Part shown: positions 6,001 to 9,000 of the stretch, piece by piece
Layout of the letters: every line of letters begins with the position of its first letter
Position numbering within the stretch: the first letter of the stretch is position 1
Assembly (NCBI GenBank): GCA_046292385.1
Contig: JBKBRF010000003.1
Coordinates: 178,231 to 242,230, forward strand
DNA: 64,000 nt
Origin: Armatimonadota bacterium
GTDB lineage: Bacteria; Armatimonadota; SYMT01
Direction of reading: 5' to 3'
Position numbers: made by a program

Positions 6001-9000
6001 GTGCCGCAACTGTGCGGAGCACTGCCGCCGCATGGCGGGCTCCCAGCGCACGATGGCACGCGCCGCCTAGCACACCCTCTGGGGAGCCGGCCGGGTGCCG
6101 GCTCCCCCCCGCGCCTCTCCCACCTGCAGCTTCTCCGTGAGTTTGCGTCCCCCAGGCGGCCGGGTACGCACCGTTGAGAGGGACCGAACGGCAACTGCGG
6201 GAGAGGGCGAGATGATCGAGAAGATGCGGAGGGCACTGGCAGCCGCCGGGGTGCTGGCGGCGACTCTGGCCGTCCCGGCGCTGGGCTGGGGACCGGACGC
6301 GGAGGCGGCGGCTTCGACCCAGCAGGGGATTCAGGGTCCCGTCCCTGCTCCGGAGAGCACGGGAAGCGCCGCCGGGCAGGTAGACGCGCGGGACCCCGCG
6401 CAGCCCGTCCAGGCACCGGCGGATCCGGCCGGGGCCGCGGCAGAGCGCGCCGATCCCGGCGGCATTCCGGGAGGTGACATGGTGGGCGGGGTGCTGGTGC
6501 CGGAGACCGGCGGCGACGCGATTGGCTCGCAGAGCGTGAGGGAGCCGCTTCCCAGAGGGGCAGAAACGCTCTCGCGGGAGGGGGCGAGCACCTCGCCGCA
6601 GCAGGCGCAGGACGATGTCTACGGCCGGCACGATCCGGAGTATCTGGAGCCTGGTAAGCGCGGCGAGTGGGACACCAACTTCGCGTGGCTCGCCCTTCTC
6701 CTGATCCCGTTCCTGGTGGGCGGTGCGGCCGTCTGGTGGATGCGCCAGCGAGGCACCCCGCGGGAGCGGCATCCCGCGCCCTAGCCCGGCGCGATGCGCG
6801 CGGCCGGCGGCTGGGACGGAAGGCCGCCGGCCGGTCGCCTTTCGCGCCGCCTACCTGCCGCTCGGCGGCGCGGAGATACTGCTCGTACGGCACCGCGCCG
6901 GTGATCACCTCGTCGCGGATGAAGACGGTCGGGATGCCCTGCACCCCCTGCTCCAGCGCCTCGCGGTACTCGGACCAGACTTCCTCGAGCCCGTCGCCCG
7001 CCTCCAGCGCAGCGGTCAGCGCCGACGCGTCGATGCCGGCACGGGCGGCGAGCTCCGCCAGCACGGCCGCGTCGCTGACGTCGCGCGTCTCCTGGAAGAA
7101 GGCCTCGAAGAGGGAGAGGTCGAACGCGTCGAAGCGGTCCGGCGCGTGGCGCTTCACCCACGCCGCCGCCTGCAGCGCCGGCAGCGACGAGGACGGGTAG
7201 CGGCTCCCCACCTCCGGCAGGTCGAACGGCAGCCCGGTCAGCTCCCGCGCCGCCCGGCGGTGGCGGAGGTGGTATTCCGTGAACCGGTGCTCTCCCGGCT
7301 CGCCGCGCAGCACGAAGGCGCGGTGGACCAGGCGGACCGGCACCCCCAGCTCCTGCTGCAGCTTCCGCAGGCGCACGGCCGCGGGCCAGCACCAGGGTCA
7401 GAGGTAGTCCGAGACGACCGTAATCTCCAGCGGCTCTCCGGGCATGGCTCTACTCCTGACAGCTTCTCTCGGGGCCAGTCTACCCCACGCGGGCGACCGG
7501 CCAACCACCCGGGAATCAGTGCGCCAGCACGAAGGCGCCGTCCGGACGCGCATAGGCCGCGGGAACGCCCCAGACCGGCACCCCGTCGGGAAGCCTTCCG
7601 AGCTCGCCGATCGGCTTTCCGGAGCGGTCGAACCGCTGCCAGGCGAGGTGTCCGCCGCGGCGCCACGCGGTCCCTTCCGTCCAGGCGAGCAGCACCTCCC
7701 CGTCCGGGTTGACCGCCAGCGCGGGGTGCTTCCGGCTCCCGGCCTCTCCCGGCGCCGCGACCGCCGGACCGATCCGGCCGGTGCGGGGATCCACCCGGCC
7801 GAAGTAGACCTGCCCCGCCGTCTCCCACGCCGCCAGCACGCCGTTCGGGCCCTCGACCAGGGCCCAGCTGCTCATCGGTCAGGTGTCGATCTTCCACCGG
7901 TCTCCCTGGGCCCCCCGGAAGCTCTTGCCGGCGTCTCCGGACGACAGCAGGTACGTGTCTCGGTTCACCTTGCCGTCCGCGGTGCGGTAGAGCACGTAGA
8001 CGCCGCCGCTGCTGTCGGCAAACACCTTCGTCAGGCAGCAGGGGCAGGCGCCGGTCGGCTCCGTCTCCACCGCGCGCTCCGCGGCGAAAGTGCGGCCGTC
8101 GTCCGCCGATTGGGCCATCCAGACCCGCCGCTTCTCCTCTCCCGGACCCGGTTTACCCGGCGCGACGGCGCCCTCCGCGCCGTGCCAGGCGACATAGACG
8201 CCGCCCCGTCGGTCGGCCGCGATACCCGGGCCGCCGTCGAGCAGCGAGCTGGCGTGCATCAGGGGCCGCTGCGGCTCGAACGTGGTCCCGGCCTCGCTCA
8301 GCCGGGAGTAGAGCACCGGCGCGCCGCCGAGCGGGTTCGCCTCCGCGCGGCTGGAGCCGAACCAGACCACGTGCGGGCGCCCACCCTTCCCCAGCGCAAG
8401 CTGGCCGCCGCGGATGGTGCCGGCCGCGACCGCGCTGCCGGGGACGCTGTTCACTCGCAGTGGCGCTGCCCACTCACCGCCCGCGGCGGGACGGCGGGTG
8501 TAGAACAGGTCGCCGCTGGCGTCCTGCCCCTGGTAGTAGAGCAGGTGGACCTGGCCGGATGCGTCGACCGCCACCTGCGGCTGGATGCCGCCGTCCGGGG
8601 GGCGCACCAGCTCGACCGGGGCCGCCGCGGCCGCCCGCGCCGGCTCCACGCTCCGGCATCCACCGCCGACCAGCACGCCGCACGCGGCGGAGCCGATCCC
8701 GAGCACCACCGATCGACGCGTCCGTTTCATCCGCTGCTTCCTTTGCTGAACCTTCGCTGCTATGCGAGTCGCCCGGAAAGGGATTGCCGTCGGGCAGTAG
8801 AATTGGGCCAGGTAGCTGCCCCATGTCCGGAGGTCTAGCCCGTGCTCCCGATCGCCGCCCCCGGCCCGCTCTCCCCGCTCGAGCGCTTTCTCTTCGACGT
8901 GACCGGATTCCTCGTCATCCCCGGCGCGCTCACCTCCGAGGAGGTGACGGCGTGCCTGGGAGCGGCGGAGCGCGCGCACGCCGCCCACCCGCCGGAGGAG

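Follow-up and report, generated by a model that had tools for sequence, protein, structure and literature searches.

A UGA codon very probably read as selenocysteine in the gene for a probably exported Asp-box beta-propeller of an Armatimonadota bacterium

Selenocysteine (Sec) is known to replace cysteine almost only at catalytic or metal-binding positions. In the selenoproteins that depend on SelB and a SECIS element (FdhA, SelD and form 1 of the DsbA-like protein, for example), a UGA codon stands on a conserved Cys position, a hairpin lies downstream of it, homologs with Cys exist, and tRNA-Sec, selA, selB and selD are present in the genome. The consensus for the bacterial SECIS is a stem of 4–16 bp, a loop of 3–9 nt with G in the first two loop positions, a spacing of 16–37 nt between UGA and loop and a minimum free energy (MFE) of −7.5 kcal/mol or lower (PMC13188914, Figure 2); most of the selenoproteins characterised so far have thioredoxin-like folds (PMC13188914). 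The gene described here likewise has its UGA on a conserved Cys position with a hairpin downstream, Cys homologs and the genes listed above in its genome, and it is very probably one functional selenoprotein gene, with Sec at UGA-284 of an exported Asp-box propeller and a proposed reactive centre of four residues. Instead of UxxC or CxxU, the propeller has U-P-M-S paired with a distant C-x-C-C.

That the family is not listed among the prokaryotic selenoproteins, as the initial annotation of the locus had it, agrees with Table 1 of the 2026 review PMC13188914, which does not include it: none of the 119 families or subfamilies in its rows is a beta-propeller, a BNR/Asp-box protein or a sialidase. 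The words 'propeller', 'sialidase' and 'BNR' have no occurrence in PMC13188914, PMC13326102 or PMC12013277, and the literature search returned neither a paper joining selenocysteine, beta-propeller and bacterial SECIS nor one joining a selenoprotein with a sialidase family protein. The protein is most likely a new and unusual fold among bacterial selenoproteins; if this is true, an exported Asp-box propeller widens both the folds and the cell compartments in which selenium is used.

The features of the locus are given below. Positions count along the window, i.e. the whole stretch of 64 000 nucleotides that was analysed, and run downwards on the minus strand.

8730..7516 (−), whole gene of the probably exported Asp-box beta-propeller, 404 codons plus a TGA stop, with one UGA very probably read through
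8730..8656 (−), N-terminal leader, residues 1–25, with basic KRTRR, a hydrophobic stretch and VGGGC, as read from the sequence
8604..8596 (−), R43-P44-P45, the R-x-P motif of the first blade (alignment A1)
8109..8086 (−), near-invariant Asp-box (BNR repeat) S-A-D-D-G-R-T-F, residues 208–215
8046..8035 (−), C229-P-C231-C232 (C-x-C-C), invariant, in the loop before the next blade's first strand
7941..7918 (−), second, weaker Asp-box S-G-D-A-G-K-S-F, residues 264–271, from the alignment
7881..7879 (−), in-frame TGA, codon 284, very probably read as selenocysteine, standing on the Cys column
7865..7847 (−), candidate SECIS hairpin, stem GGGCCCU/AGGGCCC (7 bp), apical loop GGUCG (7858..7854)
7518..7516 (−), terminal TGA, ordinary stop of the same gene
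7445..6846 (−), DsbA-like thioredoxin-fold gene, 70 nt downstream of the propeller gene (PF01323, E = 1.1e-27)

The interval 8730..7516 is a single frame on the minus strand with one internal TGA, in keeping with the earlier proposal of one gene of 404 codons with an in-frame UGA at codon 284. Translation table 11 splits it into a frame that runs to 7879 and an ORF of 119 amino acids (7875..7516), and the source genome calls it as two fragments, an annotation to be corrected; truncated protein calls from other assemblies likewise end at the 284 column. If UGA-284 is read as Sec, 120 further codons follow up to the normal TGA stop. Because all homologs end at the position of this terminal TGA, the codon is not reassigned genome-wide.

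An invariant Cys under the UGA had been reported for 119 of 119 homologs, and the present, larger set bears this out. Aligned with MAFFT, the 150 best homologs have Cys under U284 in 148 rows and a gap in two (P0102 and P0137), both of which end exactly one residue before that column; P0137 hints at a second motif, W-R-S-P-G-stop. In a second set, made of the 119 best matches, Cys is found in 118 of 118 rows, the remaining row being the window's own truncated call. When the codon itself was read in DNA, it was TGC or TGT in 27 of 30 loci of a phylum sample and, among 68 loci of genome_contigs, in 64 (the region is missing from the remaining 4), i.e. in a total of 91 loci. The motif around the Sec position is W-x-[IV]-D-[ST]-U-P-M-S.

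Exactly one TGA was found in 3 of 41 matches from 401 genomes of the phylum, and these three come from one family and three genera. Two of the five other gene-bearing genomes of this taxonomic family (G005 and G001) have TGA at the same codon as the source genome, as the initial annotation had stated for orthologs in three genera; the Cys forms have TGC or TGT. A metagenome search with a DNA pattern ending short of the hairpin gave 11 matches, four of which are due to chance while seven are true Sec forms, with 116–120 open codons after the TGA and the usual C-terminus of the family. No further TGA form was present among the 68 genome_contigs loci. L106 and L107 are degenerate family fragments. 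In a quick tree Sec and Cys forms are interspersed among close relatives; a single clade (96% SH-aLRT) contains the ten Sec forms, which are therefore not independent, and the recurrence of the TGA may go back to one or a few origins.

The source genome possesses tRNA-Sec (66.6 bits; anticodon tca according to ARAGORN) as well as selA, selB and selD, all over their curated cut-offs, which agrees with what had been reported for it; selD itself has one in-frame TGA. The Sec trait was considered as a divider between Sec and Cys forms and rejected, since among the genomes of the order selA is found in 8 of 8 and tRNA-Sec over its cut-off in 7 of 8.

The stem of the hairpin starts 14 nt after UGA-284 and its apical loop 20 nt after. 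All three genomic TGA forms contain GGCCCUS-GUC-GAGGGYC, so that the common hairpin described in the initial annotation was found again, and the hairpin is conserved in the ten Sec forms, with a stem of 6–7 bp, a spacing of 20–21 nt and a loop that starts with GG or GU. The loop measures 5 nt in the window, 6 nt in L120 and L122 (which keep the hairpin only if the register is shifted by one base) and 3 nt in most others. After each copy of the TGA, the hairpin agrees with the published bacterial SECIS consensus on every point. The MFE of the window's sequence is −27.4 kcal/mol for 52 nt (z = −2.84) and −16.4 kcal/mol for 30 nt, and with a folding window of 30 nt the three TGA forms rank 1, 2 and 4 of 90 orthologs by stability. 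Values range from −12.8 to −16.4 kcal/mol in the ten Sec forms (−12.8 to −15.6 in the nine besides the window's), vs a mean of −6.6 kcal/mol in 87 Cys forms, of which the most stable reaches −14.2. Some Cys forms fold nearly as stably there or nearby (L042, −14.2; L083, −12.4).

Synonymous sites over the hairpin are clearly constrained in the Sec forms only. Third-position identity in the 15 codons after the UGA is 0.73 in the three genomic Sec forms, the second highest of 326 windows, vs 0.35 on average over the gene, whereas three Cys-form trios of the same order give 0.13–0.20 in the same 15-codon window (rank 138–245 of about 315). The arms of the hairpin encode the conserved residues A/S-L-V-E-G, and the nucleotide conservation is therefore partly at the protein level. 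Paired cells amount to 92% in the stem vs 59–68% with the partner columns slid by one. Covariation is weak: a single stem pair varies (G-C in 4 sequences, U-A in 3 and G-U in 1), which likely represents one event, and the covariation score was equalled in 34 of 500 shuffles. A search of the whole window against Rfam at the gathering threshold gave no matches, so no curated RNA family covers the hairpin.

The TGA might owe its presence to a one-base assembly or sequencing error, as the source genome is a draft of 91 contigs, but contigs from three other studies (runs X2, X3 and X4; run X5 does not cover the TGA) are identical across 7743..8064, including TGA and hairpin, which argues that the codon is real and not an artefact; the same codon also recurs in two further genomes and seven metagenome contigs, and an error is practically refuted. 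A pseudogene, in which a nonsense mutation of the Cys codon had left the remainder to decay, would need a single base change (TGC or TGT to TGA), and degenerate fragments such as L106 and L107 do exist elsewhere in the family. However, ten sequences keep the TGA together with an intact frame of 116–120 codons (the frame is open in 10/10 Sec forms), conservation of the synonymous sites over the hairpin is confined to Sec forms, and purifying selection acts on the reading frame beyond the TGA, with dN/dS values of 0.19–0.35 at a dS of about 0.85 (0.82–0.90; 120 codons, three pairwise comparisons) vs 0.26–0.43 before the UGA, the Cys forms giving similar values. The initial annotation had judged a pseudogene unlikely, and with these data we regard it as highly improbable.

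Two products could also be made, namely a 283-residue fragment ending at UGA-284 and a 119-codon ORF from M286 that is separate or untranslated. An ATG does occur two codons after the TGA, gene callers report two ORFs (P0153, 283 amino acids), and some truncated product is to be expected because SelB-dependent recoding is never fully efficient. M286, however, belongs to the C-P-M-S motif shared across the family (of 149 rows that reach this column, 127 have M) and hence is not a new start; direct reading found no Shine-Dalgarno-like sequence at the usual spacing before it; only the N-terminal piece would be exported, the C-terminal one having no leader; a half propeller would hardly fold; and both the position on the Cys column and the hairpin would be left unexplained. 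As an account of the locus, two products are very unlikely. There is also little chance that the UGA is read through without Sec, by near-cognate Trp or Cys or by a suppressor tRNA: leaky UGA read-through exists in bacteria, but the codon lies exactly on the invariant Cys, a hairpin that fits the SelB-type model follows it, the Sec system of the genome is complete and serves further TGA-interrupted genes (selD and the DsbA-like gene), and the propeller gene itself ends in an ordinary TGA stop.

If, as we prefer, the locus is one functional selenoprotein gene, SelB carrying Sec-tRNA(Sec) would recognise the hairpin downstream of UGA-284, selenium would be inserted at position 284 as selenocysteine where nearly all relatives have cysteine, and translation would resume for 120 codons up to the normal TGA stop.

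The read-through protein has BNR_4 (PF15892) as its sole Pfam match over the cut-off, with E = 4.3e-7 (30.0 bits vs a cut-off of 27.3) over residues 50–88 only (39 residues), fails BNR_2 (PF13088; 15.8 bits vs a cut-off of 31.4) and finds nothing below E = 0.15 in an NCBIfam scan; the initial annotation had given the same picture (BNR_4 at 4e-7, no NCBIfam). Homologs in the representative library number 4791 with a limit of E ≤ 1e-3, 1741 with E ≤ 1e-10 and 486 with E ≤ 1e-30, the second number being of the same order of magnitude as the 1594 counted before at that threshold. In the ESM Atlas the clusters go under 'hypothetical' or 'sialidase family protein', which gives no functional lead, and the single fusions of a homolog to an M20 peptidase, to DUF2911 and to a sigma-70 region are uninformative. 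The leader resembles a signal peptide or a lipoprotein leader with an RR motif. By a crude N-terminal rule a hydrophobic leader is present in 124 of 135 usable homologs (lipobox in 8, RR motif in 6), so the earlier description of the protein as secreted is upheld at the level of such a rule, and the sequence suggests export as a periplasmic protein or lipoprotein.

According to the AF2 model (mean pLDDT 93.4, pTM 0.89), the product is probably a seven-bladed Asp-box propeller. Its top structural matches, which we take to be seven-bladed proteins, are the C-terminal propeller of CylK (Z = 28.5 over 326 residues, rmsd 3.7) and the PLL-type lectins of Photorhabdus/Burkholderia (Z about 26 over 295 residues, rmsd 2.9). 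Identity to them is 12–14% and a PDB sequence search finds no relation, i.e. the likeness is one of fold only and uninformative about function. By sequence profile the PDB yielded only a single-blade likeness to designed 'Pizza' propellers (E = 8e-4). Of the earlier label 'BNR/sialidase-like propeller' the propeller part stands, while 'sialidase-like' is weak, given that the best match is seven-bladed and that sialidases reach a TM of about 0.5.

Exo-alpha-sialidases (GH33) are six-bladed propellers that carry a triad of Arg, a nucleophile pair of Tyr and Glu and an Asp as acid/base. They share Asp-boxes, the R-x-P of the first blade and several invariant Arg with the propeller and are found by Foldseek with E of about 1e-9 to 1e-10, but with a TM of only 0.48–0.52 and an rmsd of 5–11; to our knowledge an invariant set of four Cys is not a sialidase feature. 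The BNR_4-type propellers 5mul/5mum/5mvh, 4irt and 7esk, presumably assignable to BNR_4, GH145 or PL42, align over 318–334 residues (Z 21–23, rmsd 3.7–4.0) at 11–14% identity, with Z no better than that of unrelated WD40 propellers. All five are propellers acting on glucuronate-containing sugars, 5mul/5mum/5mvh being the glycoside hydrolases BT3686, BACINT_00347 and BACCELL_00856, and 4irt and 7esk being L-rhamnose-alpha-1,4-D-glucuronate lyase entries; we know of no Cys cluster in any of these five structures.

Several residues are highly conserved in the family. In the R-x-P motif, which may resemble the RIP motif of sialidases, R43 is present in 93 and P45 in 118 of the 121 rows of alignment A1. 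The Asp-box is defined as S-x-D-x-G-x-T-W/F; on the propeller model the repeat at 208–215 is near-invariant (S208 in 121, D210 in 107, G212 in 120 and F215 in 119 of 121 rows) and that at 264–271 is weaker (of 121 rows, 78 have the S, 62 the D, 86 the G and 90 the F). R107, R249 and R257 are invariant. So is C-x-C-C (150/150 rows with a residue there, 121/121 and 119/119), which is also kept in the Sec forms; together with Cys/Sec-284 it makes up four invariant Cys positions.

Cys/Sec-284 and C229-x-C231-C232 lie in loops leading into the innermost strands of adjacent blades. Given the geometry of propellers, the two loops would be expected to come together where the central funnel opens, which would bring residues 229, 231, 232 and 284 close together in space. 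In the light of experience with Sec/Cys pairs, the UGA thus points to residue 284 and its C-x-C-C partner as the functional centre, which offers a biochemical handle on a large family known so far only by the two names given above. The four chalcogen positions probably form a reactive centre; most likely the Sec is the sign of such a centre, with a role in redox chemistry or metal binding. A redox-active selenylsulfide/disulfide appears more likely; the alternative would be a soft-metal site with Se as ligand or activated nucleophile. With Sec, the centre would be more reactive than in the Cys forms.

It is possible, though rather doubtful, that the Sec marks the catalytic centre of an uncharacterised class of extracytoplasmic propeller enzymes. 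In this class of sialidase-like Asp-box propellers, the active site would be formed by three Cys and the Cys/Sec at the funnel and would act as a metal-thiolate/selenolate site or through a Cys/Sec nucleophile on an acidic sugar. The carbohydrate-active GH127/GH146 beta-L-arabinofuranosidases are described as having a Cys nucleophile in a Cys-rich zinc site (PMC10728902); the analogy is chemical only, their fold being unrelated and without sequence relation to the propeller. With a limit of E ≤ 1e-10 the class would comprise 1741 or more representative clusters, most of them from soil members of the Acidobacteriota, Verrucomicrobiota, Planctomycetota and probably Armatimonadota. If this enzymatic reading is true, the protein would be the first selenoenzyme with a beta-propeller fold, and it might also be the first carbohydrate-active enzyme to depend on selenium.

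Among 99 loci no neighbour cluster recurs in more than 7, and the neighbourhood gives no hint of a substrate. A link between the propeller and the DsbA-like gene downstream was considered and rejected: the two are adjacent only in the window's genome, the orthologs in G001 and G005 being on other contigs, and the DsbA-like protein is without a leader while the propeller is exported. The DsbA-like gene has its own in-frame TGA (7400..7398), with a U-P-W-C motif at residues 16–19; its ortholog has one TGA in G001 and none in G005. A 'DsbA-like protein form 1, UxxC' is already in the selenoprotein table (PMC13188914, Table 1), and judged by PF01323 and the UxxC motif the neighbour is DsbA-like selenoprotein form 1, a known family.

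The gene is very probably a genuine Sec-decoding gene. The selenoprotein interpretation of the initial annotation was upheld, with qualifications, since the UGA falls on an invariant Cys, the hairpin that follows is under RNA-level selection, the genome is Sec-competent and the gene evolves under purifying selection. That the locus is one gene interrupted by UGA is borne out by the frame:

8730..7516, minus strand: propeller gene; ATG at 8730, 404 codons, terminal TGA at 7518..7516
7881..7879, minus strand: in-frame TGA at codon 284, the sole internal TGA of the frame
7865..7847, minus strand: hairpin in the RNA past the UGA, GGGCCCU / loop GGUCG / AGGGCCC

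Table 11 splits this frame into two ORFs, the second of which has its ATG two codons past the TGA, and the window's own database entry (P0153) is a fragment of 283 residues. Because the same gene terminates at an ordinary TGA, the codon is not reassigned.

An exhaustive homolog search, which covered 1.84 billion representatives, returned 4791 relatives at E ≤ 1e-3, of which 1741 reach E ≤ 1e-10 and 486 reach E ≤ 1e-30, and the best 150 were aligned with the query. The invariant Cys claimed at the position of the UGA was recovered: 148/150 have Cys in the column of residue 284, and the other two, the database proteins P0102 (288 residues) and P0137 (267 residues), have a gap, each of them stopping exactly one residue short of the column. 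This is the product expected from a gene caller halting at TGA, and both are probably further Sec forms, judging from where they end. The C-terminus of P0137 (W-R-S-P-G) is unlike W-x-[IV]-D-[ST], the motif that all ten Sec forms read at the DNA level have there; therefore, Sec forms may be more diverse than our metagenome search pattern could detect. A second, independent set (best 119 of 1592 relatives in a word-indexed database) has Cys in 118/119, the remaining row being the window's own fragment. C229, C231 and C232 are as invariant as column 284, and W123, S208 and G227 are likewise invariant in a 121-row alignment (query plus 120 of the 150 homologs; fused, truncated and much longer rows removed).

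Six of the seven genomes of the taxonomic family contain the gene, with one in-frame TGA in the window's own genome (G000), G005 and G001, which represent three genera; the TGA is at the same codon in the two other genera, as first reported, with Cys forms elsewhere. The order contributed one extra Cys form. A phylum sample of 401 genomes gave 41 matches in 39 genomes at E ≤ 1e-40, with an internal stop only in those three. The codon at column 284 was read in 30 loci (3 TGA, 19 TGC, 8 TGT), the aligned position being constant. Among 68 loci in genome_contigs (one genome per species), TGC or TGT was found in 64, the region was absent in 4 and TGA occurred at this column in none. Metagenome contigs were searched with W-x-[IV]-D-[ST]-TGA-P-M-S, a pattern that stops short of the hairpin and is therefore blind to it; the 11 matches comprised 4 by chance and 7 true members, the latter with 116–120 open codons past the TGA, the family C-terminus and the C-x-C-C motif. 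A quick maximum-likelihood tree of 83 rows places every one of the ten Sec rows in a single clade, along with 13 Cys rows (SH-aLRT 96%), P0102 being scored as a Sec row from its end point, and the starred branches demand at least three changes of state. True selenoproteins are usually described as having both Sec and Cys forms scattered over closely related sequences. Such mixing also means that the ten Sec sequences are not independent witnesses.

Two other explanations of the TGA were considered and rejected. A dead gene is at odds with dN/dS values over the 120 codons past the UGA of 0.35, 0.35 and 0.19 when the genomic Sec forms are compared pairwise (dS 0.82–0.90), compared with 0.26–0.43 upstream of the UGA; the Cys forms are similar. 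Two other loci do look like true pseudogene remnants, unlike the TGA forms: L106:3001-3318 retains only the C-terminal third, which contains a stop and has no open frame ahead of it, and L107:3001-3370 consists of two short pieces with the middle absent. A sequencing or assembly error is contradicted by contigs from three other studies, which match the window identically across the TGA and the hairpin (run X5 has no cover at the TGA):

7857-8064: identical contig stretch from run X2, spanning the TGA
7785-7935: identical contig stretch from run X3, spanning the TGA
7743-7915: identical contig stretch from run X4, spanning the TGA

The SECIS-like hairpin of the initial annotation also held up: in all ten Sec forms it satisfies the bacterial consensus as set out in the Fig. 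2 legend of PMC13188914.

Hairpin of the ten Sec forms against the limits in that legend
Apical loop: window 5 nt, most others 3 nt, L120/L122 (two of the ten) 6 nt; required 3–9 nt
Upper stem: 6–7 bp; required 4–16 bp
G in the first two loop positions: GG or GU; required
UGA-to-loop spacing: 20–21 nt; required 16–37 nt
MFE: −12.8 to −16.4 kcal/mol; required ≤ −7.5 kcal/mol

The 52-nt fold of the window has −27.4 kcal/mol (z −2.84). When 30 nt are folded, the three Sec forms from genomes are the first, second and fourth most stable of 90; the 87 Cys forms have a mean of −6.6 kcal/mol, with one of them (L042) nearly as stable at −14.2 kcal/mol. Covariation is modest: 3 of the 7 stem pairs never change, a single pair switches between G-C (4 sequences), U-A (3) and G-U (1), and L120/L122 keep the hairpin only in a register shifted by one base. 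Paired cells amount to 92%, against 59–68% with the 3′ side slid by one, and 34/500 shuffles reach the same covariation score. The synonymous-site test is a stronger sign of RNA-level selection. Third-position identity over the 15 codons past the UGA is 0.73 in the three genomic Sec forms (gene mean 0.35; rank 2/326 windows), whereas three Cys-form trios of the same order give 0.13–0.20 in the same window (means 0.22–0.25; ranks 138–245 of ~315). The nucleotide constraint is thus specific to the TGA forms and unexplained by the protein motif.

The Sec machinery initially listed for this genome was found again: selA (577.9 bits), selB (367.5 bits), selD (362.3 bits, with one in-frame TGA of its own) and tRNA-Sec (66.6 bits with Rfam; anticodon tca by ARAGORN). 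tRNA-Sec, selD and selA lie side by side on contig C11, 87438-90122 (loci L001, L011, L012), where tRNA-Ala(ggc) adjoins tRNA-Sec. Across the 8 genomes of the order, selA is present in 8 and tRNA-Sec exceeds its cut-off in 7; the propeller therefore exists in both Sec and Cys form among Sec-competent relatives.

The product had been described as a BNR/sialidase-like propeller with a BNR_4 match at ~4e-7 and no NCBIfam model. Both search results were reproduced, the BNR_4 match (E 4.3e-7; 30.0 bits, cut-off 27.3) covering only residues 50-88; BNR_2 stayed under its cut-off in the Pfam scan, and a sequence search of the PDB gave no related solved structure. An AlphaFold2 model built on the 121-row alignment (mean pLDDT 93.4, pTM 0.89) matches propellers: the CylK C-terminal domain (Z 28.5 across 326 residues), PLL-type lectins (Z about 26) and the rhamnose-glucuronate GH/PL enzymes 5mum, 5mul and 7esk (Z 21–23, 318–334 residues). 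Sialidases reach a TM of about 0.5 only; the propeller and its Asp-box hallmarks stand, and the sialidase likeness is weak. A near-invariant Asp-box S-x-D-x-G-x-T-F occupies residues 208-215, a weaker one residues 264-271 and an R-x-P residues 43-45; R107, R249, R257, D165, E198 and E303 are near-invariant. According to the DSSP strands of the model, C229-x-C231-C232 and residue 284 each stand a few residues ahead of the first strand in consecutive blades, and TIRG 104-107, LDGG 164-167 and KHP 334-336 occupy the equivalent place in their own blades. In propellers, loops at that place surround the opening at one end of the central funnel, where C229-x-C231-C232 and residue 284 would then lie. 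Basic residues, a hydrophobic segment and a Cys follow one another at the N-terminus. Judged by a crude rule, a hydrophobic leader is present in 124 of the 135 homologs that were usable, a lipobox in 8 and an RR motif in 6; the signal-peptide-like character proposed earlier is therefore retained, with export of the product likely.

Table 1 of the 2026 review PMC13188914, which gives 119 prokaryotic selenoprotein families or subfamilies with domain identifiers, has no propeller, BNR or sialidase-type row, in agreement with the claim that the family is unlisted. The words 'propeller', 'sialidase' and 'BNR' are absent from the main texts of that review and of the BSepDB and deep-Sep papers, and a full-text literature search found no paper on a selenoprotein of this type. 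Absence from Table 1, the literature and NCBIfam argues for a new selenoprotein family of known kind: the recoding mechanism is the ordinary one shared by bacterial selenoproteins and is not itself new, but the fold, compartment and motif are unusual. The finding adds a well-supported selenoprotein family of unusual fold, and gives a lead to where the active site lies in a large family not yet characterised.

Sec would be inserted at residue 284 in a SelB-dependent manner and the product then exported, Sec-284 and C-x-C-C building a reactive centre. If the protein is a selenoprotein, a redox-active selenylsulfide/disulfide centre is tentatively the most likely chemistry. A soft-metal site with selenium as ligand or activated nucleophile, a possibility we place second, is favoured by the nearly invariant Met two residues past Sec, by invariant His residues nearby and by the precedent of GH127/GH146, whose Cys nucleophile is held by zinc according to the abstract of PMC10728902. 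Other chemistry takes up what probability remains.

No neighbour recurs around the homologs. The local genes stand in an arrangement unconserved around homologs and, the DsbA-like gene apart, lend an oxidative-stress and metal flavour:

57-1058, minus strand: Mn catalase
2426-4993, plus strand: P-type ATPase with two HMA metal-binding domains
6846-7445, minus strand: DsbA-like thioredoxin-fold selenoprotein (PF01323, E 1.1e-27), TGA at 7398-7400
8842-9618, plus strand: PhyH-family dioxygenase
9673-10656, plus strand: aldo/keto reductase

Downstream of the propeller gene, at a distance of 70 nt, is the DsbA-like gene; its product has U-P-W-C at residues 16-19, lacks a leader and belongs to a family already known ('DsbA-like protein form 1, UxxC'; PMC13188914). 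The ortholog of this gene has one TGA in G001 and none in G005; none was found at E ≤ 1e-20 in G002, G003, G004, G006 or G007 (genomes of the same order), four of which carry the propeller Cys form, G002 having no propeller match. At 5979-6850 (minus strand) the frame of the DsbA-like gene stays open for ~290 more Arg/Pro-rich codons with no Pfam match, and this extension may be a genuine low-complexity tail or may reflect a frameshift or a fault in the assembly; the open frame of the G001 ortholog is 227 aa. No Pfam family matched the ORFs examined within 4950-6850.

Metagenome runs from soil and roots, belonging to three studies apart from the likely source (labelled hot-springs metagenome), contain short contigs of at least 99% identity to 7400-8800; this organism, or a strain very close to it, thus has a wide distribution. 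Going by source names, Armatimonadota is the probable phylum: the nearest source-named relatives of EF-Tu (60313-61497, plus strand; 88% and 80% identity) are labelled Armatimonadetes, as is the nearest source-named propeller homolog.
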